A stretch of DNA of 64,000 nt from a bacterium (lineage in GTDB: Bacteria; Desulfobacterota_D; UBA1144): NCBI GenBank assembly GCA_018654605.1, contig JABILG010000019.1:88742-152741 (forward strand), written 5' to 3'. Below, piece by piece: positions 5,476 to 22,070 of this stretch (the stretch's first letter is position 1; the number at the start of each line of letters is the position of its first letter). The notes beneath the pieces were generated by a model, which worked only from the letters and a program-made list of their open reading frames with translations, was not told the origin of the DNA and did not search any database. The position numbers and the translations under genes are program-made.

Positions 5476-8100
5476 ATGAAATCATCTGATATAAGAAAGA
5501 AGTTTTTGGATTTTTTTAATGATAAAAGTCATGGCTTAGTTGCAAGTTCTGGTCTAATTCCTAAGAATGATCCAACTTTATTATTTACTAATGCTGGCAT
5601 GGTTCAATTTAAAAATGTTTTCTTGGGTTTAGAGAAGTTTAAACATGCTCGGGCTGCATCTTGTCAAAAATCCCTAAGGGCAGGCGGAAAGCATAATGAT
5701 TTAGAGAATGTGGGAAGAACTAGTAGGCACCATACTTTTTTTGAAATGCTGGGAAATTTTTCATTTGGAGACTATTTTAAAGAAGACGCAATATCTTTTG
5801 CTTGGGAGTTTCTAACTAAAGAACTAAAGATAGATAAGAACAGGCTGTATATAACTGTCCACAATGGAGACAATGAGGCTAGAGAGATTTGGCTTAACTC
5901 AATAAAGATCAACAAAGATAGAATATATAAATTAGGTGATAAGGATAATTTCTGGTCTATGGGCGACACAGGACCATGTGGACCCTGTTCTGAGATTATG
6001 TATGACATAGGAGAGGCAAATTCGAATTGCCTAAACCCGGAGAATTGTTCTGTTGAATGTGAGTGTGGAAGATTTCTTGAAATATGGAATCTAGTTTTTA
6101 TGCAATTTAATAGAGGTGAGGATGGACAGCTTACACCTTTACCAAGGCCAAGCATCGATACTGGCATGGGCTTAGAAAGACTAGCATCAGTTCTGCAAGA
6201 TGTTAAAAGTAATTATGATACCGACCTATTTGAATATTTGACTAATTATGTTGCTACTTTCTTGGGGACAGAGTATGGGAAAGACAACGAAACAGATATA
6301 TCAATTCGAGTTTTATCCGATCATGCAAGAGCTGTGACTTTCTTAATCTCAGATGGTGTCATTCCTTCTAGCGAAGGTAGAGGATATGTAGCTAGAAGAA
6401 TACTAAGAAGAGCCGTACGTCACAATAAGAAGTTGGGAATTTCAGATCCTTTCTTACATAACCTTGTCGGTTTAGTTGTTGAGGAGATGAAGAGTTTTTA
6501 TCCGGAGTTGGGAAGTCAAAAGGATAACATTATTTCAATCGTCATAAACGAAGAAAAGAAGTTCTTATCAACCATAGATAGGGGATTTGACCAGCTTAAG
6601 GAAGCTATGAGTATGTCTTCAAGAACAAAGGTTCTCTCAGGGAAGGATGTATTTAAGCTTTATGACACCTATGGTTTTCCAGTAGATTTAATTGAAGACA
6701 TCGTAAGTGAAACAGACTATGTATTGGATATGAAAGCATACGAAGAAGAGATGCTTAATCAAAAGAATTCGTCAAAGAAAGCTTCGAAATTTAAGAATTT
6801 AGTGGGAGAGGCAATTGATTTAACAAAGATTATCAATCTGGATAATATAACAAAATTTGTTGGATATAATAGTCTTGATTTAGAGTCTAAAATTTTAGCA
6901 ATAATTAAAGATGACGAAATTGTTAGCTCTGCCTTTGAAAAAGAAAGAGTAGGGGTCGTATTAAAGTCTTCACCGTTCTATGCAGAATCTGGTGGTCAAA
7001 TAGGTGATAAAGGAGTTATTGAAACATCCTCATCCATAATTGATGTATTTGATACACAGAAAACAAAAGAAGGGTTCTTTATTCATAGTGGGATAGTAAA
7101 GAGAGGTGAAGTTAGGAATGGTGATAAAGCTAATGGTAGAGTTGATAAAATCTTCAGAGACCGAATATCTGAGCATCATTCTGCCACTCATATACTTCAT
7201 TCTTCTCTAAGAGAAATACTTGGTACCCATATTAGGCAAGCAGGCTCATTGGTAAAGAGCGATAGATTAAGATTTGATTTTAGTCATTTTTCAAATATTG
7301 ATAATGACACCCTCAAAGAAATCGAGAATTTATCAAATGAAAGAATCAGAATGAATAATGAAATTGTGATTCAAGAAAATGTTGAGTACAAAAAAGCTAT
7401 TAAAAATGGGGCAACCGCTTTTTTTGAAGATAAGTATGGTGACTTTGTTAGAGTGGTTAGAATAGGAGATTTTAGTATGGAGCTTTGTGGTGGGACACAT
7501 ATAAATAGTTCTGGTCAAATAGGTTCCCTATATATTTCATCTGAATCATCTATATCGTCTGGTATTAGGAGAATTGAGGCACATGTTGGAGAATCAGGTT
7601 TTAAGTATATAAGTAATATCAAGGATTTTTTAACAACCTCTTCTTCTTTGCTTAATTCGTCAATTGAGAAAGTACCTAATAGCATAGAAAGAATACAGAA
7701 AGAGAACGACGCTCTAAGATTAAAGGTTTCCTCGTTTGAGAAAAAAGCAACCAAGAGCCTAGCGGACCAAGTCTTGTCAGATTGTGAATCCTTTGATGAT
7801 ATCAAGATAGTTTCTTATTTAGGTAAAGATATGACTTCATCTCAATTGAAGAACCTTTGGGACGACTTAAAGAAAAATAAAAATGTTATTGCCCTCTTAG
7901 CTTCAAACAATAGAGAAAGTTCGATAATAATTTGTGCTGCTAGTAAAGGTATAAAGAATTTCGATTGTAAGGTTTTTCTAAATGAAATTGCTACTAATAT
8001 TAATGGAAAAGGTGGTGGCAAGAGCAACCTAGCACAATTTGGTTGTGACACCATTAATAGTCTTGATGAGATTGTAGTGCTTATTAAAAATCAGCTGTAA
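5476..8100 (+). CDS. alaS: alanine--tRNA ligase
   Basis: 874 aa; FLDFF..KSHGLVASS..NDPTLLFTNAGMVQFK class II AlaRS N-terminus, editing domain HxxxH motifs. Confidence 0.95.
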   Translation: MKSSDIRKKFLDFFNDKSHGLVASSGLIPKNDPTLLFTNAGMVQFKNVFLGLEKFKHARAASCQKSLRAGGKHNDLENVGRTSRHHTFFEMLGNFSFGDYFKEDAISFAWEFLTKELKIDKNRLYITVHNGDNEAREIWLNSIKINKDRIYKLGDKDNFWSMGDTGPCGPCSEIMYDIGEANSNCLNPENCSVECECGRFLEIWNLVFMQFNRGEDGQLTPLPRPSIDTGMGLERLASVLQDVKSNYDTDLFEYLTNYVATFLGTEYGKDNETDISIRVLSDHARAVTFLISDGVIPSSEGRGYVARRILRRAVRHNKKLGISDPFLHNLVGLVVEEMKSFYPELGSQKDNIISIVINEEKKFLSTIDRGFDQLKEAMSMSSRTKVLSGKDVFKLYDTYGFPVDLIEDIVSETDYVLDMKAYEEEMLNQKNSSKKASKFKNLVGEAIDLTKIINLDNITKFVGYNSLDLESKILAIIKDDEIVSSAFEKERVGVVLKSSPFYAESGGQIGDKGVIETSSSIIDVFDTQKTKEGFFIHSGIVKRGEVRNGDKANGRVDKIFRDRISEHHSATHILHSSLREILGTHIRQAGSLVKSDRLRFDFSHFSNIDNDTLKEIENLSNERIRMNNEIVIQENVEYKKAIKNGATAFFEDKYGDFVRVVRIGDFSMELCGGTHINSSGQIGSLYISSESSISSGIRRIEAHVGESGFKYISNIKDFLTTSSSLLNSSIEKVPNSIERIQKENDALRLKVSSFEKKATKSLADQVLSDCESFDDIKIVSYLGKDMTSSQLKNLWDDLKKNKNVIALLASNNRESSIIICAASKGIKNFDCKVFLNEIATNINGKGGGKSNLAQFGCDTINSLDEIVVLIKNQL

Positions 8101-8974
8101 TACCATTTTTAACAAGAATTTTTTTTATTTTTTTTATTGCAGATTTCTCAATTTGCCTCACTCGCTCCCTAGAAATCTTAAATTTTTCTCCCAATTTTTC
8201 TAAAGTAACTTGTTTGTCAGATAATAATCTATTCTTTATTATGTAAGCTTCTCTTTCATTAAGAGTTTCTATAGCTTCCTTCAAGCTGGACTCTAATTCT
8301 TTCTTTTGCTGATCCTCTATTATTATATCTTCCTGACTTTGTGAACCAGAAGGCAAAAAGTCAATCTTTGTTTGTTTTTCATTTGCCTTAATTTCGTCGT
8401 CTAGAGAGTAGTCTTTTCCACCCATCCTTTGATCCATTTCTTTTATTTCTTTAATTGAGACCTTAAGATCTCTAGATAATTTTGAATAGTATTCCTCTAA
8501 GGAAAGATCTCCAGAGTTGTATAAACTTTTAGCCGACCTTATTTTGTAGAATAGTTTTCTTTGTCCTTGTGTTGTTCCTATCTTTACAAGACTCCAGTTC
8601 TTCATTATAAAATTTTGTATGTATGCTCTTATCCACCATACTCCATAGGAAATTAATCTATATCTCTTTGTCGGATCAAATTTAGTAACTGCTTGCATAA
8701 GGCCAAGGTTTCCCTCTTGTATAACATCCATTAAATTGAGACCATAGTTTTTATATTCCATAGCAATTTTTACTACAAATTTAAGGTTTGCAGTTATTAG
8801 CTTCCTAGCGGATTCTAGGTTACCCGAGTCCCTATATTCCTGAGCATATTTTGCTTCTTCTTCACGTGATAAGATTTTATAATTACTTATTTCTGTCAGA
8901 TATTTCTCCAGTGAATTTGCTGGTACTGGCAGATTCTTATTATTATTCTTTAGCTTATTATTATTTTTCCTCAT
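8084..8974 (-). CDS. rpoH: RNA polymerase sigma-32 (heat-shock sigma factor)
   Basis: Sigma-70 regions 2-4; QGQRKLFYKIR matches the RpoH box Q(R/K)(K/R)LFFNLR; 296 aa. Confidence 0.8.
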   Translation of the reverse strand: MRKNNNKLKNNNKNLPVPANSLEKYLTEISNYKILSREEEAKYAQEYRDSGNLESARKLITANLKFVVKIAMEYKNYGLNLMDVIQEGNLGLMQAVTKFDPTKRYRLISYGVWWIRAYIQNFIMKNWSLVKIGTTQGQRKLFYKIRSAKSLYNSGDLSLEEYYSKLSRDLKVSIKEIKEMDQRMGGKDYSLDDEIKANEKQTKIDFLPSGSQSQEDIIIEDQQKKELESSLKEAIETLNEREAYIIKNRLLSDKQVTLEKLGEKFKISRERVRQIEKSAIKKIKKILVKNGITADF

Positions 8975-9084: not shown

Positions 9085-9157
9085 TCCGGAGTAGCTCAGC
9101 TGGCAGAGCAGGTGACTGTTAATCACTTTGTCGGGGGTTCAAATCCCTCCTCCGGAG
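9085..9157 (+). tRNA. tRNA-Asn (anticodon GTT), no encoded CCA
   Basis: Cloverleaf: 7-bp acceptor stem TCCGGAG/CTCCGGA, D-arm AGCTCAGCTGGCAGAGC, anticodon loop CTGTTAA (U33, GUU, A37), T-loop GGTTCAAATCC. Confidence 0.85.
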
Positions 9158-9183
9158 CGATAGTAATCGTAAACTATCATTAA

Positions 9184-9435
9184 TTGGTTATAATTTACAT
9201 TATAATTATGAGAAATTTTCTTTGCTCTTTCTTTATACTGTTCTTTTTCTCTCGTACCGCTTTTGCATATATAGACCCAGCGTCTGGAAGTACTATAATA
9301 TCGCTTATTATTGGAGGCACAGTGTTAATAGGAGTCTTTCTGAAGACTTTTTGGTATAAGCTTAAATCGTTAGTTGGGATTAAAGATGTAAACAATAAAC
9401 CTGTTAGGACAACTGAAAACAATAAGAACCTGTAA
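9184..9435 (+). CDS. small signal-peptide/TM protein, first gene of the operon (stop overlaps next start as TAATG)
   Basis: MRNFLCSFFILFFFSRTAFA signal-like segment followed by a second hydrophobic helix; translational coupling to next ORF. Confidence 0.35.
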   Translation: MVIIYIIIMRNFLCSFFILFFFSRTAFAYIDPASGSTIISLIIGGTVLIGVFLKTFWYKLKSLVGIKDVNNKPVRTTENNKNL

Positions 9436-12428
9436 TGGATACTCCTAATGTCTTCATTCTTGGTGCATCCTATCCAATAGCCGGGAAACAACCATCGAGT
9501 CTTCAAAGTATCACTGAAAAAACTAAAGTGCTCGATTGGCAGCTTGATAGTTTTAAGTCGATTAATTGGAAGAAGATTAATTTTCTAGGTGGTTACAATA
9601 TAGAAGATATTATAAAACATTACCCAGAAGTTAATTATATTTTAGTTGAAAATTGGGAATCAAATTCTTTACTAGATACTTTTTTTCAATGTCCTATGGA
9701 AGATTCTCCCGCTATTTTCACTTATGCAGATACGATTTTTCGTCCGGAGATTTTAAAGAAAATATCAAAAAGCAAAGCAGATATTGCTGTTGCGATAGAT
9801 ATTAACTATGAAACTCGTTATGATAATCGTTCGAAAGCTGATATAGGAATTGCAGAGATAATTATTCCTAATCACGGAGAATTTAAAGGTCAGAATTCTG
9901 AATTTACTGGTCTCTTTGGCATGCAACCTCATGTTGCCAAAATAGTAAGGACAATAAAGGGTAAGATTCCAGGGGTAAACCTCTTGGACCTTCTTTCTTA
10001 TTTTGAGAAAAGTGGATTACATATTGATTATATTGACGTTGGAACTAATTGGGCTGAATTGAACGAGCCACAAGATATAGCAAGGTTTATATTGGGGAAT
10101 AAAGCTCAGACATTGTCAAGATTAGCCCCTATGGTTAGGAAGAGTAAAATTGGAAAGCAGATTAGCTTTACTGTTAATGAGTGGTTCAACAAGAAGGATT
10201 TAATTATTTCAGAGATTCAAGAATTTTTTCATGAGAAGAGATTAATCATAAGAAGTAGTGCGTTAGATGAAGATGGATGGAGCAACTCCCTTGCCGGCCA
10301 ATACAAAAGTATCCCAAATGTAGATAGTGGTTCAATTAAGTCGATAATTAAAGTCGTTAAGGAAGTTATATCGTCTTATGGTGGAAGTAGAAATGATAGC
10401 AATGACGAAGTCTTAATTCAGGAATTTCTTGATGATATAAGTATTTCTGGCGTAGTATTTACATGTCAGTTAGAAACAGGTGCGCCTTATCATACTTTTA
10501 ATTTTCAAGATACTGAAGGTTCAATAGAAGCGATAACCTCAGGCACATCTCAAGATGACAGAACTATTGTATTACATAGAAGGGAAATTGCAGAATTAAA
10601 GAAGTTGGAACCAAAGCTTGAACCAGTCAGAAAGGCGATAGACGAATTAAAAGACTTGCTGTCTTTTGATAAATTAGATATCGAGTTTGCAATAGACAAG
10701 AAAGGACTAGTTCATATTCTTCAGGTTCGACCAATTGCAGTAGACCACAGAGAGTACGACGATGTAACTAATTTATTTGAGGACAAACTAGATGAGGCAG
10801 CTGCTTTATTTGTTTCTTTCCAAGATCAATCAGATGTCCTCTTAGGTAGCACAACATCTTTTAGTAATATGTCAGATTGGAATCCTGCGGAAATTATTGG
10901 AATTCATCCTAATCCTTTAGCTTTTAGCCTCTATAGGTTTTTGATAACTGATGATGTTTGGGCTGAACAACGTTCAGAGTTTGGTTATCGTAAAATTAAG
11001 GAATGCCCATTAATCATTGCATTTTGTGGTCAGCCCTATGTCGATTTACGAGCTAGCTTCAATTCCTTTATCCCAGCCAACATTGATAGCACATTAGCAA
11101 AGAAGTTAATTACAGCCTATCTAGGCAACCTATCTTCCAGACCTCAGTATCATGATAAAATTGAGTTTGATATTGCGATGACTTCATGGACGCCAACTTT
11201 TAGAAGGGATGCAGAGGAAAGATTGATTTCTTGGGGTATAAATTCTAAAGAAATTAATAAACTTGAAGAAGGATTAAAGCTAATAACCTCAAGGGCCATA
11301 ATAAATTTTGAGAAAAATACTTCTATTGAAACTTTGACAAAAAATCGCGACAAAATTTTACAAAATAAAATGGGATTGTTAAACAAAGGACTTTCTTTGC
11401 TTGTTGATTGTAAGAAGAATGGGACGCTAGCCTTCGCACATTCTGCACGACATAGCTTTGTTGCCATAAGTTTTCTTAAGAGTTTTATAGAAATTGATAT
11501 ATTCACTAAAGACGAAGTAGACTTGCTATTATCTTCCATCGAGGGTGTTTCTACTAGTATGCGAAAGAACCAAATTGCTTTACTCGATCGTAAAATTACC
11601 TTGGATGAGATGATTCTAAAATACGGCCACCTGCGCCCAGGTACATACGACGCTACGGCTCCTGCCTATTGGGAAGACTCTCAGTATTATTTAAAAGCAG
11701 AAAATAGTAATATGAATATAAAGTCCTCAAATTTTGATTTATCTAAAAAACAGGAAAACTCGATAGTGGAATTTATGAAGGATCTTGGTGTAAGTATTGC
11801 TCCCAATAAGCTAATTAATTATATGAAAAGTGCAATTGTAGCTCGAGAGGAAACAAAGCTAGAATTTACTCGTAATTTAAGCCTGGCGTTAGACTGTTTC
11901 GTAGAATTTGGCAAAGAGATTGGGTTAAGTCGTAAGGAGGTTGTTTATTTAGAATATAAGGATTTTGAACAACTTAGTTTAGATGGTTTAGATTTTAATG
12001 AAGTTAAACAAATTATTAGTTCTCGTATGACTCAAGACAAGCTGAATCATATGTTTGAGATTCCGCCATTTATAAAAAGTAAAGAAGATTTTTATTGTTT
12101 TGAGCATTATGATGCTCAAATAAATTATATTACCAATAAGAAGATTATTGGTAAATTAAAGAATTTAAATACAAGAGTTCACGACAATTTAGAAGGCAAG
12201 ATTATTTTGACACATCAGGCCGATCCTGGGTACGATTGGGTTTTTAGTCGTAATATTGTTGGATTGATAACTGAACATGGTGGCGCTAACTCTCACATGG
12301 CGATTAGAGCAGCTGAACTAGGATTACCCGCCGCTATAGGTATAGGTAGCAAGTTGTTCAATAAATTAGCCAAAAGTAATAAAATTAAATTAGATTGTGG
12401 TAACCATAATATTATAATTATTAATTGA
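9435..12428 (+). CDS. fusion protein: N-terminal LicC-like nucleotidyl(cytidylyl)transferase domain + PPDK/PEP-synthase-type ATP-grasp domain + C-terminal phosphohistidine 'swivel' domain (glutamine-kinase / rifampin-phosphotransferase-like architecture)
   Basis: aa ~1-230 N..Y...N...SL and WAELNEPQD resemble LicC-type NTases; middle RSSALDEDGWSNSLAGQYKS is the PPDK_N ATP-grasp motif; C-terminal ITEHGGANSHMAIRAAELGLPAAIG is the PEP-utilizing mobile His motif (His codon 12294-12296); no TIM-barrel domain after it. Confidence 0.6.
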   Translation: MDTPNVFILGASYPIAGKQPSSLQSITEKTKVLDWQLDSFKSINWKKINFLGGYNIEDIIKHYPEVNYILVENWESNSLLDTFFQCPMEDSPAIFTYADTIFRPEILKKISKSKADIAVAIDINYETRYDNRSKADIGIAEIIIPNHGEFKGQNSEFTGLFGMQPHVAKIVRTIKGKIPGVNLLDLLSYFEKSGLHIDYIDVGTNWAELNEPQDIARFILGNKAQTLSRLAPMVRKSKIGKQISFTVNEWFNKKDLIISEIQEFFHEKRLIIRSSALDEDGWSNSLAGQYKSIPNVDSGSIKSIIKVVKEVISSYGGSRNDSNDEVLIQEFLDDISISGVVFTCQLETGAPYHTFNFQDTEGSIEAITSGTSQDDRTIVLHRREIAELKKLEPKLEPVRKAIDELKDLLSFDKLDIEFAIDKKGLVHILQVRPIAVDHREYDDVTNLFEDKLDEAAALFVSFQDQSDVLLGSTTSFSNMSDWNPAEIIGIHPNPLAFSLYRFLITDDVWAEQRSEFGYRKIKECPLIIAFCGQPYVDLRASFNSFIPANIDSTLAKKLITAYLGNLSSRPQYHDKIEFDIAMTSWTPTFRRDAEERLISWGINSKEINKLEEGLKLITSRAIINFEKNTSIETLTKNRDKILQNKMGLLNKGLSLLVDCKKNGTLAFAHSARHSFVAISFLKSFIEIDIFTKDEVDLLLSSIEGVSTSMRKNQIALLDRKITLDEMILKYGHLRPGTYDATAPAYWEDSQYYLKAENSNMNIKSSNFDLSKKQENSIVEFMKDLGVSIAPNKLINYMKSAIVAREETKLEFTRNLSLALDCFVEFGKEIGLSRKEVVYLEYKDFEQLSLDGLDFNEVKQIISSRMTQDKLNHMFEIPPFIKSKEDFYCFEHYDAQINYITNKKIIGKLKNLNTRVHDNLEGKIILTHQADPGYDWVFSRNIVGLITEHGGANSHMAIRAAELGLPAAIGIGSKLFNKLAKSNKIKLDCGNHNIIIIN

Positions 12429-12444
12429 GGTACAATTTATAATT

Positions 12445-13074
12445 ATGAAGATATTAGCTATAAGCCAAAGAGTAGAAAATATTTATGAATACTCTGAGAA
12501 ACGCGATTGCTTAGATCAAAGGTGGACCAGCCTGATTCATAGGCTTGGTTTTTTGCCTCTTCCTTTATCTAATCTTGCTTCACCCTCAGAGTTTATAGAA
12601 AATATAACCCCTTCAGCCATTATCTTAAGTGGAGGAAACAATATAGCCAAAGTAGATAAATTAGCTTTAGATGTTTCAACTGAGCGAGATAAATTTGAAG
12701 AAAGATTAATCAAGATTGCAATAAAGAAAAATATCCCAATTATAGGTGTGTGTAGGGGGATGCAAATGATCAACTTGTTCTTTGATGGATCAATGTCGCA
12801 GGTTGTGAATCACACAGGCGTCAAACACGAGATTACTTTTGTAGGTAAATATTTAGAAGAAGAATCTAGAGAAGTTAATAGTTACCATAGATGGTGTATT
12901 CAGGAGCCAGGTCTCGGAAGGTCGTTAGTTCCATTAGCTATAGCGAACGACGGAACAGTCGAGTCTTTTTATCATGAAAAGTATCCAATTCTTGGTATTA
13001 TGTGGCACCCTGAACGAGAGGAGCCACACGTGCAGGACGATTTAAATCTTATTAAAAAGTTTGTTCAATCATGA
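12445..13074 (+). CDS. class I glutamine amidotransferase-like / peptidase C26 family hydrolase
   Basis: GVCRGMQMIN nucleophile-elbow Cys, downstream HPE catalytic His/Glu; 209 aa. Confidence 0.7.
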   Translation: MKILAISQRVENIYEYSEKRDCLDQRWTSLIHRLGFLPLPLSNLASPSEFIENITPSAIILSGGNNIAKVDKLALDVSTERDKFEERLIKIAIKKNIPIIGVCRGMQMINLFFDGSMSQVVNHTGVKHEITFVGKYLEEESREVNSYHRWCIQEPGLGRSLVPLAIANDGTVESFYHEKYPILGIMWHPEREEPHVQDDLNLIKKFVQS

Positions 13075-13850
13075 GGGCACTAATTCTAGCCGCTGGTGAA
13101 GGCTCAAGATTAAGGCCATTAACTAAAGATAAACCTAAAGCTTTAGTAGAACTTTGTGATAAGACTTTACTTGAAAGACAAGTCTCAATCTTACAAAAAG
13201 CTGGTATTACCGATATTGCGATAGCAACCGGCTACAAAGGAGAGCAAATACAAGAGTTGGGTTTTAATTGTTATCATAATCCTGATTATGCCACTAGCAA
13301 TATGGTTTATAGTCTTTTTAATGCTTTGCCGTTTTTGGAAAGAGAAGGAGATTTAATAATATCTTATGGTGATATTGTTTACGAGTTAGACAATTTAAAA
13401 AAAATAATTACGTCAGATGCAGCTGTAAATGTAATGGTAGATAAGGAGTGGTTTAAATATTGGAAGATGAGATTTGTAGATCCTTTAACAGATGCAGAGA
13501 GTCTAATATTAAATGATGATGGAACAATAAAGGAGCTGGGTTTAAAAACAGAGAGCTATAACGATATTCAAGGTCAGTATATTGGGTTAATAAAAGTAAG
13601 ACGTGATAAGTTGAAAGCTTTAATAAGTTTTTATCATAATCTAAAGATAAAAAAATCATCTAATATTAAAGATCTTAATAATATGTTTTTAACAGATTTT
13701 ATACAATTGTTAATCAATGCAGACTGGGATATAAGGGCTATATTAATTAGTGGAGGATGGTTGGAGGTAGACTCTTTAAAAGATCTTAATCTTTATGAGG
13801 GATTAGCAAAAAGTAAGGAGCTAGATTCTTATTGTAGGTTAGATAAGTGA
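13071..13850 (+). CDS. sugar-/alcohol-phosphate nucleotidyltransferase (LicC/CTP:phospho-X cytidylyltransferase-like)
   Basis: MRALILAAGEGSRLRPLTKDKPKALVEL signature; ATGA overlap with upstream gene. Confidence 0.8.
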   Translation: MRALILAAGEGSRLRPLTKDKPKALVELCDKTLLERQVSILQKAGITDIAIATGYKGEQIQELGFNCYHNPDYATSNMVYSLFNALPFLEREGDLIISYGDIVYELDNLKKIITSDAAVNVMVDKEWFKYWKMRFVDPLTDAESLILNDDGTIKELGLKTESYNDIQGQYIGLIKVRRDKLKALISFYHNLKIKKSSNIKDLNNMFLTDFIQLLINADWDIRAILISGGWLEVDSLKDLNLYEGLAKSKELDSYCRLDK

Positions 13851-14989
13851 GAACTTTTTTTAAACAACTAAGTCAATTGATTAGCTTTACTCAGTTATCA
13901 AAAGCTGAGAAAAGTATAGTCTTTTATTCTGAAGGCAAAGATTCTTGGATACATTTAAAAGGACTTATAGAGGAATTTTTGAAAACTTCTAAAATACATA
14001 TTTGCTATATAAGCTCTGAAGAGAATGACCCTGGTTTAAACTTAAAAGATCCTAAATATAAAGCTTTTTGTATAGGAAGTGGATATATGAGGGATTGGTT
14101 GTTTTCTAATATTCAGACAAACATAATGGTTATGACAATGCCTGACTTAAACTCTTTTCAGCTGAAGCAATCTAGCTATAATGTGCACTATGTTTATCTA
14201 CAGCACTCGTTAGTTAGCCTTCATATGGCATACCGTAAAGGCGCCTTTGATTATTTTCAAACTATTTTTTGTGCTGGAGCACATCACGTTAAGGAGCTGA
14301 GACGTATTGAACAGATTCAGAATTTGAAGCCTAAGAATCTTGTTCAGCATGGTTATAGCCGTTTAGATCAGATTATAAAAGAAACCCCTAGAAATTTAAG
14401 AATTACCAGATCTCTTAAACCTATTAAGCATATATTGATTGCACCTTCGTGGGGGGAAAATACTATTATTGATATGATTGGCGAGGAATTAGTTAGCATA
14501 TTGTTAACAGATGGGTTCAAAGTTACTTTGCGCCCTCATCCTCAGACTATCAAATTATCATGGCATAAAGTAGAGCAAATATTAAAAAAGCATGAAGCAA
14601 ATTCTTTATTTAATTTAGAGGTTGAGATGTCTAGCCAAGTATCTCTAAGTGAATCTGATTTGATGGTTAGTGATTGGTCAGGCGCCGCGCTGGACTATGC
14701 GTTTGGTCTCAATAAGCCTGTATTATTTATCGATCTTCCAAAAAAAGTGAATAATTATGATTATAATGAACTAGAAATTGAACCTCTTGAGGTATCTATC
14801 CGTTCAAAAATAGGCGGGATTCTTGCTTTAGATGAGTTGCCTAATATAGCAACTTGTATTAACGCTTTATTAAAGAGTTATGATAATCAAAAGCTGATGC
14901 AGCTTTCTAATGATACGGTGTATAATTTAGGGTCTGCTGACAGTGTTGGCGTCCAAGCGTTAGAAGAATTAATTAATAATAATGTATGA
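13847..14989 (+). CDS. CDP-glycerol glycerophosphotransferase (TagB/TagF) family phosphotransferase
   Basis: LIAPSWGEN (cf. TagF YAPTWR) and MVSDWSGAALDYAFGLNKPVLFIDLP (cf. LITDYSS...DF..L.KP) motifs; GTGA overlap start. Confidence 0.6.
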   Translation: MRTFFKQLSQLISFTQLSKAEKSIVFYSEGKDSWIHLKGLIEEFLKTSKIHICYISSEENDPGLNLKDPKYKAFCIGSGYMRDWLFSNIQTNIMVMTMPDLNSFQLKQSSYNVHYVYLQHSLVSLHMAYRKGAFDYFQTIFCAGAHHVKELRRIEQIQNLKPKNLVQHGYSRLDQIIKETPRNLRITRSLKPIKHILIAPSWGENTIIDMIGEELVSILLTDGFKVTLRPHPQTIKLSWHKVEQILKKHEANSLFNLEVEMSSQVSLSESDLMVSDWSGAALDYAFGLNKPVLFIDLPKKVNNYDYNELEIEPLEVSIRSKIGGILALDELPNIATCINALLKSYDNQKLMQLSNDTVYNLGSADSVGVQALEELINNNV

Positions 14990-17253
14990 CGATGAGATAT
15001 AAACAAGCAGTAAACTTATTAGCCTTCTTTAGCTTGGTAATCTTTGTAGTTATACCAGGCACTCTCTATTTGTTTAACCATAATCAATGGAACTATGATT
15101 ATTGGCTTCTAATATATTTCTGTGGATTTGGTGCGATAAGTTTTATTGCTCTATATCTTGTTTACTATGCGATTAATAAATTCTCTAACAGGTATGCAGA
15201 AATATTCGCCTATATTATCTTTTCTATAGGCTTAATTACATTATTGAATGATACATTGTCCCCAGTCCAGCTTGGCTTGTTGGATGGAAGTAGGATTCAT
15301 AGCAATGAGCCATTCTTCTATACATTAATTGAATCCATCATCACTTTTATAGCTATAGGATTTGTATGGTTTTCGGTTAAGAAAAATAAACAGTGGATAT
15401 ATATAATTATCAAACCCATATATTTCGTGAGTGCAGGACTGATTATCTTTAGCCTGGTACTTCAGGATGGCTTTCAAGAGAAAGAAGAGGCTAAGAATAA
15501 ATTGCAAGTTCGAGAGTTGCCTAATATATACCACTTCCATATTGATGGTATGCAAACAGACTATTTTTTACGTTATATAAATAATCATCCAGAAGTTAAA
15601 AAGAAGCTTGAAGGTTTTACACTATTTGAAAAGAACATTGCTAATTATCATAGTACAATGTTGTCTTTACCTAGTTATATGACCAGTACAACACATTTAG
15701 AAGGTAGGTTTGATAAATGGCTGAAGAGTTATGACCAGGGCCTACTGAGAAAATTAAAAAAGCGAGGCTATAGATTAGTCCATAATAGCAACGCTCCTTA
15801 TAGAAGTAATTATTTTGATAAGATAATCGCGATTCCAGAACTGTTAAAAAGATATAACGGTGCTCAACATCTATCTATAGTAGAATTTACCAGGATATGG
15901 CTGACTAAAATAATTCCTAATTTCTTAACAAATGAATCTTTATCCCTAGGAAAAGAAATTGGTAAACGTTTTTTTTATATACTCAATCCTAATCATGACA
16001 CAGACATTGCGTTAACCATGGAAGATGGGACAGCGGCACTATCTGGGATTCTATTATTTAAAGACATGATGTCAGATATTGATTATTACTCGCGTCCTAA
16101 TCAGTACGTATTCTCTCTTAATTCTATTCTACACGATAGCTATGTTAGTTCTCCAAGCTGTAAGATAGAAAAAAGACCTGATTTTCCGGTAGCCCAAAGA
16201 TACTACCGACAGCTTGAGTGTGCAATGATGCTCATTGAAGAATTTGTGTACACACTAAAAAGCCTAGATCGCTATAATGATTCACTAATTGTGATTCATG
16301 GTGATCATGGGTCTGCCTATGCGGGTCAACTGCTAGATTTCCAAGATAGTTCCTTTCAAACAAACATGGATAACGCGGACATGTCACCTTTCGACACTGT
16401 AATTGGGAGTAAAAGCTTAAAAGTGCTTGAATCCAAGGCTAGGGCATTGTTAATGGTTAAGCCTATATTCGCCACTGGTGAAATGGTTATATCTAATCTT
16501 CCTACACATTTACTAGATGTGTATCCAACCATCATGGGACAGATTGGTGTTAATAATCTAGAGAACATTAAAGGCGTAGATTTATTCAGCAATAAAGATA
16601 TACAAGACAGACAGCGTTATTTTTATTACATGGGTGGTAGTTCGCATCATGCTCAAATAACAAATTATCATACTATGATTCCGGATTATGATGGTAATTC
16701 GGGTATTTTATCGTTGGTTCCAAAGAGTACAGGTAAAACAACGGCAAAATCTTTCTTTAAGAATGCAAAAGATATAAAAGAATATAGAGATATTAAGTTC
16801 TATTACACAACTGTGAACGGGAAGCTTGAAAATAATAGAGCTTGGATATTCGTTGAAGGAATAGACCTTCCTCGAAATTGGGGATCCTGGACAAACAGTG
16901 ACAAGGTTACCTTAGCCTTTGTGCCAGAGAATCCAAGCCCGTTAGAATATAGAGCATTAACTTTAAGGATATCTGATATATTCGTTAACTTTAAAAATCC
17001 ACAGCTTAGCGCCAAGTTTTATTTAAATAAAAAATTAATTGGCTCACTAGTTTTTGGTATGCCTAAGAGCCAATACTCTTTTCCACAAGATGTTGAATTT
17101 GAACTCTCTAAGGATCTAATTATTTATGACCAGCCCAATGTGTTGGAGATATATATAGAAGGAGCTAATTCAGAAAGAGGTTTAGGAATAGGTGTAGATG
17201 ATAGAAAACTAGGGCTGGCTCTAGTTGAGTTATCATTAAAAAAATATAAGTGA
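14986..17253 (+). CDS. polytopic membrane protein with sulfatase/alkaline-phosphatase-superfamily catalytic domain (LtaS/EptA/OpgB-like phospho-group transferase) plus ~200-aa C-terminal extension
   Basis: ~5 N-terminal TM helices; NIYHFHIDGMQTDYF metal-site region and VIHGDHGSAYAG (GDHG) sulfatase motif; ATGA overlap start. Confidence 0.6.
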   Translation: MTMRYKQAVNLLAFFSLVIFVVIPGTLYLFNHNQWNYDYWLLIYFCGFGAISFIALYLVYYAINKFSNRYAEIFAYIIFSIGLITLLNDTLSPVQLGLLDGSRIHSNEPFFYTLIESIITFIAIGFVWFSVKKNKQWIYIIIKPIYFVSAGLIIFSLVLQDGFQEKEEAKNKLQVRELPNIYHFHIDGMQTDYFLRYINNHPEVKKKLEGFTLFEKNIANYHSTMLSLPSYMTSTTHLEGRFDKWLKSYDQGLLRKLKKRGYRLVHNSNAPYRSNYFDKIIAIPELLKRYNGAQHLSIVEFTRIWLTKIIPNFLTNESLSLGKEIGKRFFYILNPNHDTDIALTMEDGTAALSGILLFKDMMSDIDYYSRPNQYVFSLNSILHDSYVSSPSCKIEKRPDFPVAQRYYRQLECAMMLIEEFVYTLKSLDRYNDSLIVIHGDHGSAYAGQLLDFQDSSFQTNMDNADMSPFDTVIGSKSLKVLESKARALLMVKPIFATGEMVISNLPTHLLDVYPTIMGQIGVNNLENIKGVDLFSNKDIQDRQRYFYYMGGSSHHAQITNYHTMIPDYDGNSGILSLVPKSTGKTTAKSFFKNAKDIKEYRDIKFYYTTVNGKLENNRAWIFVEGIDLPRNWGSWTNSDKVTLAFVPENPSPLEYRALTLRISDIFVNFKNPQLSAKFYLNKKLIGSLVFGMPKSQYSFPQDVEFELSKDLIIYDQPNVLEIYIEGANSERGLGIGVDDRKLGLALVELSLKKYK

Positions 17254-17310: not shown

Positions 17311-17688
17311 ATGGTTTTATTCACTAAAGTTACCGGATTAATTTTAATTTTTCTTGGAGGATTGGGATATTATTTATATGAAACTCGTACTGTATTAATT
17401 CCTATAATCTTGGGCTCGTTAATTCTCATTTTAGGATTGGTTGCAGATAATCTAAACAGAAAAAGAATGGCTATACACATCGCTGTAATGTTAACAGTAG
17501 TGGGTCTGGTTGTGTGCTGGAGCGGAATCAAAGAACTTCCGCTATTGTTATCTTGTGGTGGAATATTGACTTGTGATGCGGTAAATAGACCCGTTGCAGT
17601 TTTATTTAGGTCAACAATGTTCATCGTTCTTTTTCCTTACTTTATTGCTTCAATAATATTTTTTATTAAAGCAAGAATGAGTAAATAA
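17311..17688 (+). CDS. hypothetical 4-TM membrane protein
   Basis: Strong RBS AAAGGAG 7 nt upstream; four hydrophobic helices. Confidence 0.4.
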   Translation: MVLFTKVTGLILIFLGGLGYYLYETRTVLIPIILGSLILILGLVADNLNRKRMAIHIAVMLTVVGLVVCWSGIKELPLLLSCGGILTCDAVNRPVAVLFRSTMFIVLFPYFIASIIFFIKARMSK

Positions 17689-17709
17689 ATATTTGGTATA
17701 ATATGATTA

Positions 17710-18153
17710 ATGGGATTCCCAAAGATAAAATCTAATATATCAGAGATTAGCTCTTATACGGGTAGCAAAGAGAAGTATCCAATGTTCATAGCAAGAGTTC
17801 AGGCAGGCTTCCCTTCGCCAGGAGATGACTATATTGAAAAGAATCTTGATTTAAATGAGCTTTTAATAAAGAACCCCTCGGCAACTTTTTTTGTAAAAGT
17901 TGAAGGAGATTCTATGGTTAACGCTGGAATAAACTCGGGGGATACTTTAGTCGTAGATAAAGCGGTAGAGGCCAAAGACAAGAGTGTGGTAATTGCTTAT
18001 ATTAATGGAGAATTGACAGTTAAAAGGATTTGGCTTGGAAAGGGAAAGGTTTTTTTAAACCCTGAGAATGAAGATTTTAGCCCTATAGAAGTTACAGAAG
18101 AGACAGATTTTGATATATGGGGAGTCGTGACCTACGTAATACATAAGGTTTGA
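17710..18153 (+). CDS. umuD: translesion DNA polymerase V accessory subunit UmuD (S24 peptidase, LexA-like)
   Basis: [40 protein letters not shown] aligns closely with E. coli UmuD including AG cleavage site, Ser (GDSM) and Lys (KRIW..GK). Confidence 0.8.
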
Positions 18154-18154
18154 T

Positions 18155-19420
18155 ATGAGTAAGTATATAGCTTTAATTGATTGTAATAATTTCTATGCCT
18201 CATGTGAGCGCGTATTTGACCCATCATTACAAGATAAGCCAGTTGTTGTTCTCTCTAATAATGATGGATGTGTTATCGCGAGGTCTGCCGAAGCTAAGAT
18301 GGTTGGAATAAAGATGGGAGAGCCATTGTTCAGGTGCAAAGATATTATTAAGAAAGAGTCGGTAAGAGTTTTTTCATCTAACTATACTTTATATGCGGAC
18401 ATGTCTAATAGGGTAATGAGCATCATTAAGAATCATTTTGAAGACGTAGAGATTTATTCTATAGATGAGGCATTTGTTTTTATTGAGACAATTTCAGTTG
18501 ATAATTTATCTAAAGAGCTTGTAGCTTTAAGAAATAAAATCTTAAAATGGACTGGGATACCTGTATCTATAGGTGTGTCGACAACAAAGACTTTGGCAAA
18601 ATTAGCAGGAAGAAAAGCAAAAAAGAATTTAGGCGTTTACTGCCTTTGTGCTCGTAAAGATTTTACCAATGTTTTGAGAGAAACACCGGTAGGATCAGTC
18701 TGGGGGATAGGACGTAGGTTAGAAAAAAGAATTCTTTTAAAGGGCATATCTAATGCTTACCAGTTAAGTTTTTTTGATCACAAAAAAGCCAGAAGTCTTG
18801 GTAGTATAAACCTTGTTCGCACCATTTTGGAGCTTAATGGGCTTTCATGTCTGGGTATTGATTCAGCACCTGAGAACAAAAGACAGATTACAACTTCTAG
18901 GGCTTTTGGAAGCCCCATATATACCTTAGATTTGCTTCAGGAGGCAGTTTCAGTGTATATGTCTCGCGCTGCCGAAAAGCTGAGATTTCAGGGTTCAAGT
19001 TGCTCTACTATTACTGTAGCTCTTTCTACAAATCGTTTTAGTCAAAGAGAAGATTATAAGTTCCTTGTTAAAACCCAATCATTAATTTCTTCGACAGACT
19101 CAACGTCTAAGCTGATTAGTGTAGGTAAAGAAATTTTAGAGTCTATATTTAAGAAAGGACTCGGCTATAAGAAGGCTCATATCTTTCTTTCCGGCCTGGA
19201 GAAATCTACCTCAAAACAATATTCGCTAGAAGATAATGTTGCTTCTATAGCCAAGGAGACGAACCTTATGAGAGTGCTGGATAGGCTAAATATTTTCTAT
19301 GGTAGAGATACATTGAAATATGCTAGTACAGGGATTTCACGTGATTGGCTTATGAAAAGAGAGAAGAAATCTCAAAGCTATACAACTAATTGGAGCGAGA
19401 TTCTTACAATACAACTATAA
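18155..19420 (+). CDS. umuC: Y-family DNA polymerase V catalytic subunit UmuC
   Basis: [20 protein letters not shown]...[16 protein letters not shown]-terminus typical of UmuC; 421 aa; 1-nt spacing from umuD. Confidence 0.85.
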
Positions 19421-19831
19421 TATTATATAAGTTATACAGATAACCTTGAGAAACCAAAGGAAAACTCTAATTATGTTTCCATTAATTAATTTATTGATTT
19501 CTAGGATTGATTTACCTGAAGAAAGTTTGTTATGGCTAGGGATTTGTAAAATAAATGTCGTAACCCAGATTAAAAAAACTATTAATAAATTAGCTAATGA
19601 GAATAGGGAGTAGTAAAAATAGCATATTAATATTGATGTAGTGGCCTCAATAATCATCAAAGGAAGGACAATGAAAGAAATATTTTTTACATGAAATTTA
19701 TGAAATTCTATAAAATTAGCATCACTAATAAATTTGAAGGACTTATAGTGTACAAAGTGAATTATTAATATAAGGCCAAGTAATGCAGATGAGGTAATTA
19801 AATTAGAGTAAAAAAGAAGTACGTATTCCAT
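19415..19831 (-). CDS. hypothetical small 4-TM membrane protein
   Basis: Hydrophobicity only; contiguous with downstream oxidoreductase gene. Confidence 0.35.
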
Positions 19832-21024
19832 TAATATAATGACACCACTAAGTTAGTGCCAGATTGAATAGAGCCATTTAAAGAAGGTTCTGATAAATAG
19901 TCACCAGCAAAATATATTTGATTAGAATATTCATAAAAACATTTATCTCTGAAGTTAAATAAATCCTTTGTTGAAGGAAGTGCATTAACAACTTTGATAT
20001 CTTTTAAGAAATTGATTTCATCCATATTCTTAAAATAACTTAAAATTTCATTTTCTATAGTGTCTTTGTCGCTATTAATTGATAAAGAGGAGGCGGAAAG
20101 AATTAGTTGATCATTGTCCAGTCTGTTGAATGACATATTGGCAATATTCTTTGATTCAGGGAATAAGTATATTAAGCAATCATCAATATCCTTAATTTTA
20201 ACTTTAAAGTAGAAGCACCTAGTACTGTTATATTCTAGATTTTTAAAAAATCCTTTATTTATTTTTTGGTCAATGGCACCCTCGATTTGAGGGTCAGTAC
20301 ATAATAGTTTTTTAAAATAAAAAGTTTCCCCACTATTTGTTGTTAAATAATTACTATAAATTTGCTCCACTTTGACATTTTGTTTGATTTTTCTATAATC
20401 AAGCTTTTCTGCAATTTTTTGGATTATCTGGTTTATTCCATATTGGGGTATGCAGACCTGACTAGTTGCAAAGAGATTGAATATGAAAAAAAAATACCTT
20501 AGAGGAACATTTAGTTTTTTATCTAAAAATACTCCTTGAAAAAAAGATATAAAGAAATCATTGATAAACGACTCTGTGAATCCAAAATCTTTAAGAAATT
20601 TTAACACCTTAATGTTTTGATTTTCATATCTATTGCTTAGCATGAAAAGCTTAATTAATAGATATTTATCTTTTATAGTAAAGCCTGGGAAAGTATTATT
20701 GAAAAATATAGCCTGAAAGTTTTTTAGAGGATTTAATACCTTGAATATCTTATCTTTTTTCTTTATAGCAAAGCCAGATTTAAACTTTTTATATGGAATA
20801 TTATTAATTTCCGGAAATAATTTTAGTGTCGGATAATCTCTTAGTAGAATTTGAAAGCCTCTATCTAAATTATATTCAGATAGACTTATTGTTGAAATTT
20901 TTCCACCCATAGTAATGTTTTTATCTAAGATTAAATAACTAATGTTCTTGGCAGATAAAAGTTTAGCTATAGTAAGTCCTGTTATACCGCTTCCAATTAT
21001 AATATTATCATATGAGTTGTTCAT
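19831..21024 (-). CDS. FAD/NAD(P)-binding amine-oxidase-type oxidoreductase
   Basis: N-terminal IIIGSGITGLTIAKLL...LDKN..GGK dinucleotide-binding fold; 397 aa. Confidence 0.65.
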   Translation of the reverse strand: MNNSYDNIIIGSGITGLTIAKLLSAKNISYLILDKNITMGGKISTISLSEYNLDRGFQILLRDYPTLKLFPEINNIPYKKFKSGFAIKKKDKIFKVLNPLKNFQAIFFNNTFPGFTIKDKYLLIKLFMLSNRYENQNIKVLKFLKDFGFTESFINDFFISFFQGVFLDKKLNVPLRYFFFIFNLFATSQVCIPQYGINQIIQKIAEKLDYRKIKQNVKVEQIYSNYLTTNSGETFYFKKLLCTDPQIEGAIDQKINKGFFKNLEYNSTRCFYFKVKIKDIDDCLIYLFPESKNIANMSFNRLDNDQLILSASSLSINSDKDTIENEILSYFKNMDEINFLKDIKVVNALPSTKDLFNFRDKCFYEYSNQIYFAGDYLSEPSLNGSIQSGTNLVVSLY

Positions 21025-21731
21025 TCTGATGGCGGCAATATCCAGTTTCCAATTTTACCCGCATTACCATGGACCCCTTTAAATATGATTGATAAACTAA
21101 ACGAAGCAAAGAAAATAATAATTCTGGAAATATTAGGCAGTCCAAAATTTTTTTCAATTTTTGAATTTAATCTTGATTGGGTTGAAGGTATTGGATAAAA
21201 AATTGATTCAACTGCTTTACTTCTATTGTAATTTTTGTCTTGATTTTCTTCATAAATATTCAAATTTTCTTTAAATAAATTTAAATCTTTCTTTTTCATA
21301 ATATTGTCTATATTATAAATACCTCTTTGGCTTAATGTAGGCAAAATTAATATATATACAAATCCAATTATATTGAATATTAGTGAAACTTTAATAGTAA
21401 AAGCTACAGCAGAGATATTAGTATTTGAATAGTATGAATAAAGAATTATGAATAAAATAGTATTAATAACGATGCTAAATATGTAAGACCTAATATGATT
21501 TTTTTTCTTGATGTTTAACTTAAACCTCTCTAAATGGAATTTATAGTTTTTGAAGTTTTGCCTGGTCCAATGTTTAGGCACCACAATTATAGTGTCTTTA
21601 AAGGTTCTTAAGATATTCATTGTCATATATGAGGGTGCTTCTGGAATAATGATTAATGAAAATCCATCTATTTTATCGGACTTACCTTTCATGAATGTTT
21701 TTATTGATAATTCCTGAAGTGGTAACAACAT
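21021..21731 (-). CDS. hypothetical membrane protein
   Basis: Central hydrophobic helices; ATGA overlap with downstream oxidoreductase gene. Confidence 0.4.
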   Translation of the reverse strand: MLLPLQELSIKTFMKGKSDKIDGFSLIIIPEAPSYMTMNILRTFKDTIIVVPKHWTRQNFKNYKFHLERFKLNIKKKNHIRSYIFSIVINTILFIILYSYYSNTNISAVAFTIKVSLIFNIIGFVYILILPTLSQRGIYNIDNIMKKKDLNLFKENLNIYEENQDKNYNRSKAVESIFYPIPSTQSRLNSKIEKNFGLPNISRIIIFFASFSLSIIFKGVHGNAGKIGNWILPPSE

Positions 21732-22070
21732 TAATTGGGTTATTGTTGATAATAGAATACAAAGGGAGAGGCTTTGTTTATGGTAGCTATAAAAAATTAT
21801 ACTCCCATATAATATAAAAATTAAAAAGAGAATTATATTGGCCGAGATTATTTCTAGTATCTTTTTTTCTTCTTTAGGATTTAGTTTTATATGAGAAAAA
21901 ATATCAAATGGTAAGGTGAATATTATTATAAAAATATGTAGACATAAACTGTTTTTATAGTGTTACCAAAGTGTAAGATTATATGATTTTCTATTTGGAA
22001 ATATAGAGCAATTATGGATGCAAGTACAATTACGCCTATATACAATATTCCAATTGATAATTTAGCATTA

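Follow-up and report, generated by a model that had tools for sequence, protein, structure and literature searches.

A putative long-form L-glutamine kinase carrying a degenerate cytidylyltransferase-like domain in a predicted cytidine-diphosphoramidate operon

The stretch of DNA considered here, hereafter the window, comprises 64,000 nucleotides from a bacterium of the lineage Desulfobacterota_D; UBA1144 (assembly GCA_018654605.1, contig JABILG010000019.1, positions 88,742 to 152,741 of the forward strand) and contains, at positions 9435..12428 on the plus strand (all coordinates are those of the window unless a locus is named), a single unbroken open reading frame (ORF) of 997 codons. Its product joins a nucleotidyltransferase (NTase)-like domain to a putative L-glutamine kinase of the Cj1418 family, in what we refer to as the long form of that kinase, and it lies within an operon (9208-17253) of co-directional plus-strand genes whose boundaries overlap or nearly abut. 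We report that the 997-residue fusion is very probably an L-glutamine kinase, the first enzyme of the Campylobacter-type pathway for the decoration of sugars with phosphoramidate, and that its N-terminal domain is a degenerate relative of the canonical cytidylyltransferase which is encoded by the same operon.

The ATG with which the fusion begins and the stop of a small ORF upstream of it (9208..9435) overlap, and this start is credible because the N-terminus lines up with those of 118 full-length homologues in an alignment. The NTase-fold domain (aa 1-215; 9435..10079) is followed by a linker and an ATP-grasp (PPDK_N) nucleotide-binding domain (aa 216-441; 10080..10757) with an invariant R273-S-S...E279-D280, then by an all-helical central domain (aa 442-880; 10758..12074), delimited from the secondary structure of the full-length model, and lastly by a C-terminal swivel phospho-histidine domain of the PEP-utilizers family (12075..12425). 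Of four motifs quoted in the initial annotation of this DNA, which was made from the letters without database searches, three are exact, namely WAELNEPQD at aa 206-214, RSSALDEDGWSNSLAGQYKS at aa 273-292 and GGANSHMAIRAAELGLPAAIG at aa 949-969, and the codon that it gave for the phosphohistidine, at 12294-12296, is indeed the CAC of His954; the fourth, 'N..Y...N...SL', does not occur literally in the fusion, the closest stretch being ENWESNSLL at aa 72-80.

The kinase body is recognised from sequence profiles and from structure. Pfam places PPDK_N at aa 258-387 (E 1.2e-13) and PEP-utilizers at aa 920-989 (E 1.8e-13), and the NCBIfam model NF004508 (PRK05849) matches aa 213-996 over its positions 4-788 of 789 with 873.8 bits, the cut-off being 501. 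The models for phosphoenolpyruvate (PEP) synthase, pyruvate phosphate dikinase (PPDK) and rifamycin phosphotransferase, for their part, match over short stretches only and far under their cut-offs, those for rifampin phosphotransferase (RPH), NF041857 and NF000283, scoring 32.5 and 19.8 bits against 999 and 1700. An AlphaFold2 model of the full-length protein, built on 64 homologues (predicted local distance difference test (pLDDT) 88.8, predicted template modelling score (pTM) 0.85), has the domains in the order NTase-like, ATP-grasp, large all-helical and C-terminal swivel, and its top PDB matches by Foldseek are the RPH structures 5hv1 and 5fbs (E 2e-23 to 1e-21), with nucleotidyltransferases, which match the N-terminus, coming after them. 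The RSS..ED motif of the ATP-grasp domain and His954, within GGANSHM, are invariant across the 64 homologues. No Pfam match to the PEP/pyruvate TIM barrel (PF02896) is found in the fusion and no barrel in the AlphaFold2 model; since the protein ends 43 residues past His954 and the next gene begins 17 nt on, none follows. The initial annotation had proposed a kinase of the Cj1418/RPH type that acts on a small molecule and ends in its swivel histidine domain, with no TIM barrel after it, and both points are borne out. Many of the homologues are called 'glutamine kinase' in JGI annotation and some bear the automated name 'choline kinase/phosphohistidine swiveling domain-containing protein'; identity to the short-form kinases is only about 35-37%. 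By analogy with the rifampin (RIF)-binding domain of RPH, the helical domain at aa 442-880 is the presumed L-glutamine-binding domain.

The fold of the N-terminal domain came to light only through structure prediction and profile-profile comparison. Pfam detects no family in aa 1-232 at E<=0.1, NTP_transferase and NTP_transf_3 included, so that of the Pfam domains named in the initial annotation the two kinase families were found and the NTase family was not; the sole NCBIfam match of the domain is TIGR03992, weak at E 1e-3, and searches of PDB sequences with phmmer and with a profile of the family gave nothing useful. For aa 1-236 the AlphaFold2 model is confident (pLDDT 87.9, pTM 0.86), and Foldseek matches it, with a probability of 1.0 and TM-scores of 0.62-0.73, to 4jd0 (a CTP:inositol-1-phosphate cytidylyltransferase), 6pd1/2 (the phosphonate cytidylyltransferase PntC), GlmU and RmlA. 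A profile of the domain aligns to the stand-alone NTases of the same loci over 224 columns (hhalign probability 99.7%, E 5e-27), and a hidden Markov model built from those NTases matches the fusion at E 3e-15. Because of the hhalign match and of a distinctive D..W..R...AE(T) insert that is common to the two families, the fused domain is best regarded as a second, duplicated copy of the cytidylyltransferase of this pathway and not as a generic LicC. The NTase fold that had been posited for this end of the protein therefore stands.

Profile alignment of the two families locates what the duplicate has lost. A five-residue deletion turns LAAGqGtRLRPxT into LGAg-----rPaxG, so that the GxGxR loop is gone, and PK has become PS with the loss of the lysine. 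The signature loop, thus shortened (aa 9-24; 9459..9506), reads LGASYPIAGKQPSSLQ in the window protein, replacing the canonical LAAGxGxRLxPxTxxxPKxL, and the NTP-phosphate-binding signature G-x-G-x-R...P-K is absent from the protein, which has LGASYPIAGKQPSSL in its stead. The stand-alone family keeps ILAAG.G.RL...T...PK at a level of at least 90%. Candidate substitute basic residues are common in the fused family, yet not invariant: position 13 is Arg in 71, Lys in 30, Tyr in 7 and Leu in 5 of 118 members, and position 19 is Lys in 81 and Arg in 15, with Asn and Ile also occurring, while Tyr13 and Gln19 occupy these positions in the window protein. Residues remain fixed in most segments of the active site, D34, D99, D122, R128, R132, D136, E141, E156, W206, E208, N210 and D214 being invariant; of the YxD/W.E.D metal-site positions, D99 and E208 are among these and the Asp of W.E.D is replaced by the invariant Asn210. 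To judge from these alignments, the cleft is under strong selection and the loop expected to handle the triphosphate is gone.

Searched against 1.84 billion representative proteins, the profile of the N-terminal domain gives 208 matches at E<=1e-30, nearly all of about 1000 residues, and no free-standing copy was seen among them. Twelve 'short' matches, which were considered as free-standing domains, were inspected and rejected as such; because all 12 continue into the kinase linker, they are truncated fusions.

The remainder of the operon supplies the enzymes with which the kinase would be expected to work. Directly downstream (12445..13074, +) lies a class-I glutamine amidotransferase of the Peptidase_C26 (C26) family, 209 aa, which Pfam and NCBIfam point to as a putative gamma-glutamyl-CDP-amidate hydrolase of the Cj1417 type; its best NCBIfam match by far is NF045546 (GCDPHdlase; E 2.3e-46), at 158 bits against a curated cut-off of 250. 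It is followed by the canonical stand-alone NTase (13071..13850, +; 259 aa; Pfam NTP_transf_3/NTP_transferase), a putative CTP:phosphoglutamine cytidylyltransferase of the Cj1416 type, whose best PDB sequence match is LicC (1jyk) and several of whose relatives are named L-glutamine-phosphate cytidylyltransferase by JGI. The next gene (13847..14989, +; 380 aa) encodes a TagF-like CDP-X phosphotransferase of the Glyphos_transf family (PF04464, E 6.7e-9), which we propose as the phosphoramidate transferase. The order kinase, hydrolase, cytidylyltransferase is also that of cj1418c-cj1417c-cj1416c in C. jejuni. An ORF of the APS-kinase-like, Cj1415 type was found nowhere in the 64-kb window, and a scan of the window for promoters and terminators gave results at chance level.

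Two further members of the operon are membrane proteins. The first, upstream of the kinase (9208..9435, +), has 75 aa, no Pfam family, a signal- or transmembrane-like N-terminus, an AYIDPASGS motif and a transmembrane helix. A protein 53% identical to it stands at the same position in a relative with a 64%-identical kinase, and small ORFs with AY[IL]DP[GA][ST]GS recur across several phyla in 14 or more further long-form loci, where they directly precede the kinase or directly follow the TagF-like gene; in locus L054 the AYxDPxSGS ORF is fused to the TagF-like ORF. The protein may anchor the transferase in the membrane or act as its partner. The second (14986..17253, +; 755 aa; PF00884), whose start and the end of the TagF-like gene overlap, is a multi-transmembrane protein of the sulfatase/alkaline-phosphatase superfamily and an accessory member of the operon, with homologues adjoining the cassette in seven loci (L004, with two copies, L009, L010, L027, L033, L036 and that of the close relative, L085); its architecture may be LtaS/EptA-like.

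The fusion architecture is abundant in sequence databases. In a collection of 5.8 billion proteins, 118 of the 120 best matches are at least 980 aa long. A scan that took a single genome for each species gave 595 related loci, and the trio of kinase, C26 hydrolase and NTase occurs in at least 595 of these representative genomes. The 80 loci that best matched a long-form query were kept (70 of the long form and 10 of the short), and among them the long form is found in Gamma-, Beta- and Alphaproteobacteria, Bdellovibrionales (Bdellovibrionota), Flavobacteriales (Bacteroidota), Planctomycetota, Actinomycetota, Chloroflexota, Cyanobacteria, Chlamydiales (Chlamydiota), Spirochaetes, Verrucomicrobia and Haloferax elongans. 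Among loci with at least 2.5 kb of downstream sequence, the C26 hydrolase and the stand-alone NTase accompany the kinase in 60 of 60 of the long form and 7 of 8 of the short; the fused domain therefore does not replace the stand-alone NTase. The two forms part company in what else they carry. A TagF-like orthologue (E<=1e-40, within 8 kb) is present in 40 of the 70 long-form loci and in none of the 10 short-form loci (Fisher p=0.001), and a Cj1415-type gene of the APS_kinase family, an assignment upheld by Pfam, in 4 of 70 and 8 of 10, respectively (Fisher p=7e-7); no locus of either form has both. Some loci scored as TagF-negative, such as those of Shewanella pealeana and Vibrio parahaemolyticus, hold a more distant Glyphos_transf protein.

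Individual loci place the cassette among genes for surface polysaccharides. In S. pealeana the long form lies in an O-antigen/capsule locus, and in V. parahaemolyticus (L086, 5905-22739) the long kinase, C26 hydrolase and NTase stand first in a wza-wzz capsule locus, in which genes for a Wzx-type flippase, several glycosyltransferases and the Glyphos_transf protein also lie. The same V. parahaemolyticus protein sequence is present in more than 130 assemblies, and one K-antigen type of this species may carry a phosphorus-nitrogen (P-N) decoration. The short-form loci look Campylobacter-like, with an APS_kinase-family gene adjoining the NTase in L082, L079, L080, L081, L072, L070 and L075. The order in L082 (13824-18998) is kinase, C26 hydrolase, NTase, APS-kinase-like gene, a 431-aa protein with no Pfam match, an S-adenosylmethionine-dependent methyltransferase, a sulfatase-family protein and an Inositol_P/CysQ-like phosphatase, and one may speculate that the last of these could recycle a 3'-phospho-CMP by-product. 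Four loci combine the long form with an APS-kinase-like gene (L048, L050, L056 and L066, the last from Haloferax elongans), so that the N-terminal domain and the 3'-kinase are not strictly exclusive; in the two from Rheinheimera, L048 (6787-8556) and L056 (6757-8548), a very divergent Glyphos_transf-like ORF stands just upstream of the APS-kinase-like gene, the L048 ORF, which alone was run, matching the Pfam family at E 1e-3.

These data bear directly on the role of the fused domain. The initial annotation saw in it an active cytidylyltransferase that consumes the product of the kinase, which, with glutamine as the substrate of the kinase, would make the protein a true bifunctional enzyme that channels phosphoglutamine into a CTP:phosphoglutamine cytidylyltransferase. 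The confident NTase fold, the specific kinship to the Cj1416-like family, insert included, the invariant acidic D99, E208 and D214, and the Arg or Lys found at positions 13 and 19 in 80-90% of the family, which might replace the canonical Arg and Lys, all suit such an enzyme; we nevertheless consider it unlikely, in view of the deleted GxGxR loop and the lost PK lysine, of substitutes that vary within the family and are Tyr13 and Gln19 in the window protein, of the lack of a match to any Pfam NTase model and of the canonical NTase retained in all 60 long-form loci, which would not be expected were the fused copy doing the same job. Because the loop and the lysine have gone, we propose that the fused domain does not carry out canonical cytidylyl transfer, and we infer that it is a ligand-binding, regulatory or docking pseudo-enzyme.

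The kinase would thus act, with its pseudo-cytidylyltransferase domain, at the head of a cytidine-diphosphoramidate pathway, and this reading as a whole we regard as, on balance, probable. The chemistry has a precedent, the sequence Cj1418, Cj1416, Cj1417 (and then Cj1415) being the established route to cytidine diphosphoramidate, with CDP-phosphoramidate 3'-phosphate as the product of the four enzymes (PMC11800397; PMC6429109). Since the operon is colinear with cj1418-cj1417-cj1416, the logic of phosphorylation followed by CMP activation is already known, and the suggestion that it is undescribed was, as chemistry, mistaken.

By analogy with that published chemistry, ATP would pyrophosphorylate or phosphorylate His954, and the swivel domain would carry the phosphoryl group to L-glutamine's amide nitrogen, giving AMP, inorganic phosphate and N-phosphoglutamine. 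The stand-alone NTase would then make CDP-L-glutamine, from which the C26 enzyme would free glutamate to leave cytidine diphosphoramidate. A ligand-binding or docking role is proposed for the fused domain because its loop is lost, the stand-alone NTase always accompanies it and the cleft is invariant: it may bind phosphoglutamine, CDP-glutamine or the CDP-amidate, none of which presents a pyrophosphate leaving group, for feedback or for the hand-off of a labile product, or it may instead dock the active paralogue, in which case the channelling that the initial annotation had in mind would be achieved through a pseudo-enzyme. The TagF-like enzyme, probably partnered by the small AYxDPxSGS membrane protein, would finally take the phosphoramidate directly from the CDP-amidate and attach it to an envelope glycan, freeing CMP and bypassing the Cj1415 3'-kinase step of Campylobacter. 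Direct transfer is proposed on the precedent of the TagF-like FtaD of C. difficile, whose donor for the transfer of a substituted phosphate is a CDP-amino acid, CDP-N-methylthreonine (bioRxiv 10.64898/2026.02.12.704994). The more specific picture, in which the pseudo-cytidylyltransferase senses a CDP-linked product or recruits the active paralogue, bringing glutamine kinase and cytidylyltransferase together in one complex, and the cassette constitutes a widespread, 3'-kinase-independent route to unmethylated phosphoramidate on envelope glycans, is a tentative one that we hold to be possible but short of probable.

Two other accounts alter the chemistry of the cassette and a third denies it. 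The kinase might act on another amide or amine, or the TagF-like enzyme might use CDP-L-glutamine directly, so that the decoration is not simple phosphoramidate; PPDK-like kinases that form N-P bonds on other substrates exist, for example TalE (PMC6482885), FtaD accepts CDP-N-methylthreonine, the C26 match lies under its cut-off and the identity to the short-form kinases is low, but we think this quite unlikely, given that the trio of kinase, C26 hydrolase and NTase is conserved in content and order between the long-form and the Campylobacter-like short-form loci and that a universal gamma-glutamyl hydrolase-type enzyme is sensible only if a glutamyl group is removed. Very unlikely, in our estimate, is an N-terminal domain that has gained a new catalysis, transfer or hydrolysis, on a CDP-linked intermediate and so substitutes for the missing Cj1415-dependent step: no precedent is known to us for such an activity in the NTase fold and four loci hold both the domain and an APS-kinase-like gene, even if almost every segment of the active site has invariant polar residues, the domain is anticorrelated with that gene across the sample and it is always fused, with no free-standing copy seen. 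That the fusion is a PEP-utilising enzyme (PEP synthase or PPDK), as publicly annotated, or a rifamycin phosphotransferase is scarcely credible, the weak local matches to such models over the His domain being offset by the missing TIM-barrel PEP/pyruvate domain, by NCBIfam scores of 20-66 bits against cut-offs of 598-1700 and by an operon context of glycan modification.

Against the reading that we favour, a long-form L-glutamine kinase with a pseudo-cytidylyltransferase domain, several points must be set. The product title of NF004508 is 'hypothetical protein', the score of the C26 ORF is below the curated cut-off, and the likeness to Cj1418, Cj1416 and Cj1417 is one of family profiles, annotation names and gene context. 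We know of no phosphoramidate-bearing glycan from the source organism. The query used to pick the 80 loci leaves the short forms under-sampled, and Shewanella MR-4 is not among the 120 matches listed with the S. pealeana orthologue as query. Within the N-terminal domain itself, many polar residues stay invariant and positions 13, 19 and 24 are still basic in most members of the family, so that the domain may have a non-canonical catalytic activity. Since an Asn serves GlmU as a metal ligand, the change of Asp to Asn at position 210 was rejected as proof of inactivity.

Comparison with better-known systems shows what is shared and what is peculiar. Like Cj1418 (the C. jejuni L-glutamine kinase, EC 2.7.3.13), the window protein has an ATP-grasp domain, a substrate domain and a C-terminal swivel histidine domain with no TIM barrel, and both are encoded by the first gene of an operon of kinase, C26 hydrolase and NTase; the window protein differs in its extra N-terminal NTase-like domain of about 215 residues, NF004508 aligning only from aa 213. 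In place of the Cj1415-type 3'-kinase and the methyltransferases of the Campylobacter O-methyl phosphoramidate (MeOPN) pathway, the operon has a TagF-like transferase. The fused domain shares its fold and family-specific motifs with the operon's counterpart of Cj1416 (the CTP:phosphoglutamine cytidylyltransferase, of LicC/COG1213 type), but its GxGxR loop and PK lysine are missing, and it is always fused and stands beside an intact Cj1416-like gene. RPH (5hv1, 5fbs), though the best structural match of the kinase body, with three domains in the same order and the His domain last, resembles that body in sequence in the His domain only (32.5 bits against 999), has another substrate domain and genomic context, and has no NTase domain.

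The degenerate domain, too, has parallels. PntC-AEPT (6pd1/6pd2), one of the top structural matches of the N-terminal domain, is a precedent for a cytidylyltransferase fused to the enzyme that makes its substrate, in that case a transaminase, although the NTase of PntC is catalytically intact whereas the signature loop of the window protein is missing. Inactive NTase paralogues are known to partner or regulate active ones, as GMPPA does GMPPB and the large subunit does in ADP-glucose pyrophosphorylase. In those systems, as is proposed here, a duplicated NTase has lost catalytic residues, kept its ligand pocket and works beside the active paralogue; the copy predicted to be inactive is here fused to the upstream kinase and is not a separate subunit. 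The FtaABCD system for Type A flagellin modification in C. difficile likewise relies on a cytidylyltransferase to make a CDP-activated, non-alcohol donor for a TagF-like phosphotransferase, but its donor is a CDP-amino acid and not the CDP-amidate proposed here, and it has no PPDK-like kinase or glutamyl hydrolase.

The claim that the fusion is undescribed fares better than that of a novel chemistry, the architecture, common as it is in sequence databases, not having been found in the literature searched; nor did that literature yield anything relevant on phosphoramidate in Vibrio capsules. Three features appear to be undescribed within it: a kinase fused to a degenerate copy of the next enzyme of its pathway, the association of the long form not with Cj1415 but with TagF-like transferases and a small, conserved membrane protein, and the breadth of the pathway outside Campylobacter. 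The glutamine kinase has been described in a review as specific to C. jejuni (PMC9561416) and capsule sugars that bear phosphoramidate as found in Campylobacter alone (PMC6429109), while a preprint on Borgs recognises homologous Cj1416-1418 clusters in archaeal elements. The distribution reported here points against a restriction of the kinase and of the phosphoramidate pathway to Campylobacter, the commonest form in our sample being one with an extra, degenerate NTase domain that pairs with a TagF-like transferase rather than with the Cj1415 kinase.

The TagF-like gene suggests itself as a concrete candidate for the phosphoramidate-transfer step. Unmethylated phosphoramide has been described on the lipopolysaccharide (LPS) of Shewanella MR-4 and Xanthomonas campestris (PMC3210612, PMC8042644), and the cassette suggests a genetic origin for such groups on some LPS, neither MR-4 nor Xanthomonas being, however, among the best 80 loci kept of the 595. 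Should our interpretation be correct, P-N decoration of glycans would be no Campylobacter peculiarity and would extend to many bacterial phyla and some archaea, V. parahaemolyticus capsule types included, and a kinase that bears an inactivated version of the enzyme following it in the pathway would make an instructive example of regulation or channelling by a pseudo-enzyme. Tractable organisms that carry the cassette include V. parahaemolyticus, V. harveyi, S. pealeana, Colwellia and Pseudomonas brenneri.

The window has a G+C content of 32.6% and the rest of it is of a housekeeping character (alaS, an rpoH-like sigma factor, polA, PBP2/RodA, H+-PPase, argG and aroC). The nearest named relatives are marine metagenome-assembled genomes, of Candidatus Dadabacteria for the NTase (79%) and of Thermodesulfobacteriota for the kinase cluster (64%), and the surroundings of the cassette are syntenic in the latter; from this conserved synteny the cassette seems to be a stable chromosomal trait here and not a variable antigen island.

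A tRNA-Asn (GTT) gene (9085-9158, +) lies between the cassette and a divergent sigma-70-family gene on the minus strand (8084-8974). Downstream of the cassette are a 125-aa membrane protein without a family (17311-17688), umuD/umuC-like genes (Peptidase_S24 and IMS; 17710-19420) and, on the opposite strand at 19415-23027, two flavoproteins of the amine-oxidase/NAD_binding_8 type with small membrane proteins, the Pfam families being those called on the identical contig L083. The genes of 17311-23027 are all syntenic in the relative with the 64%-identical kinase.

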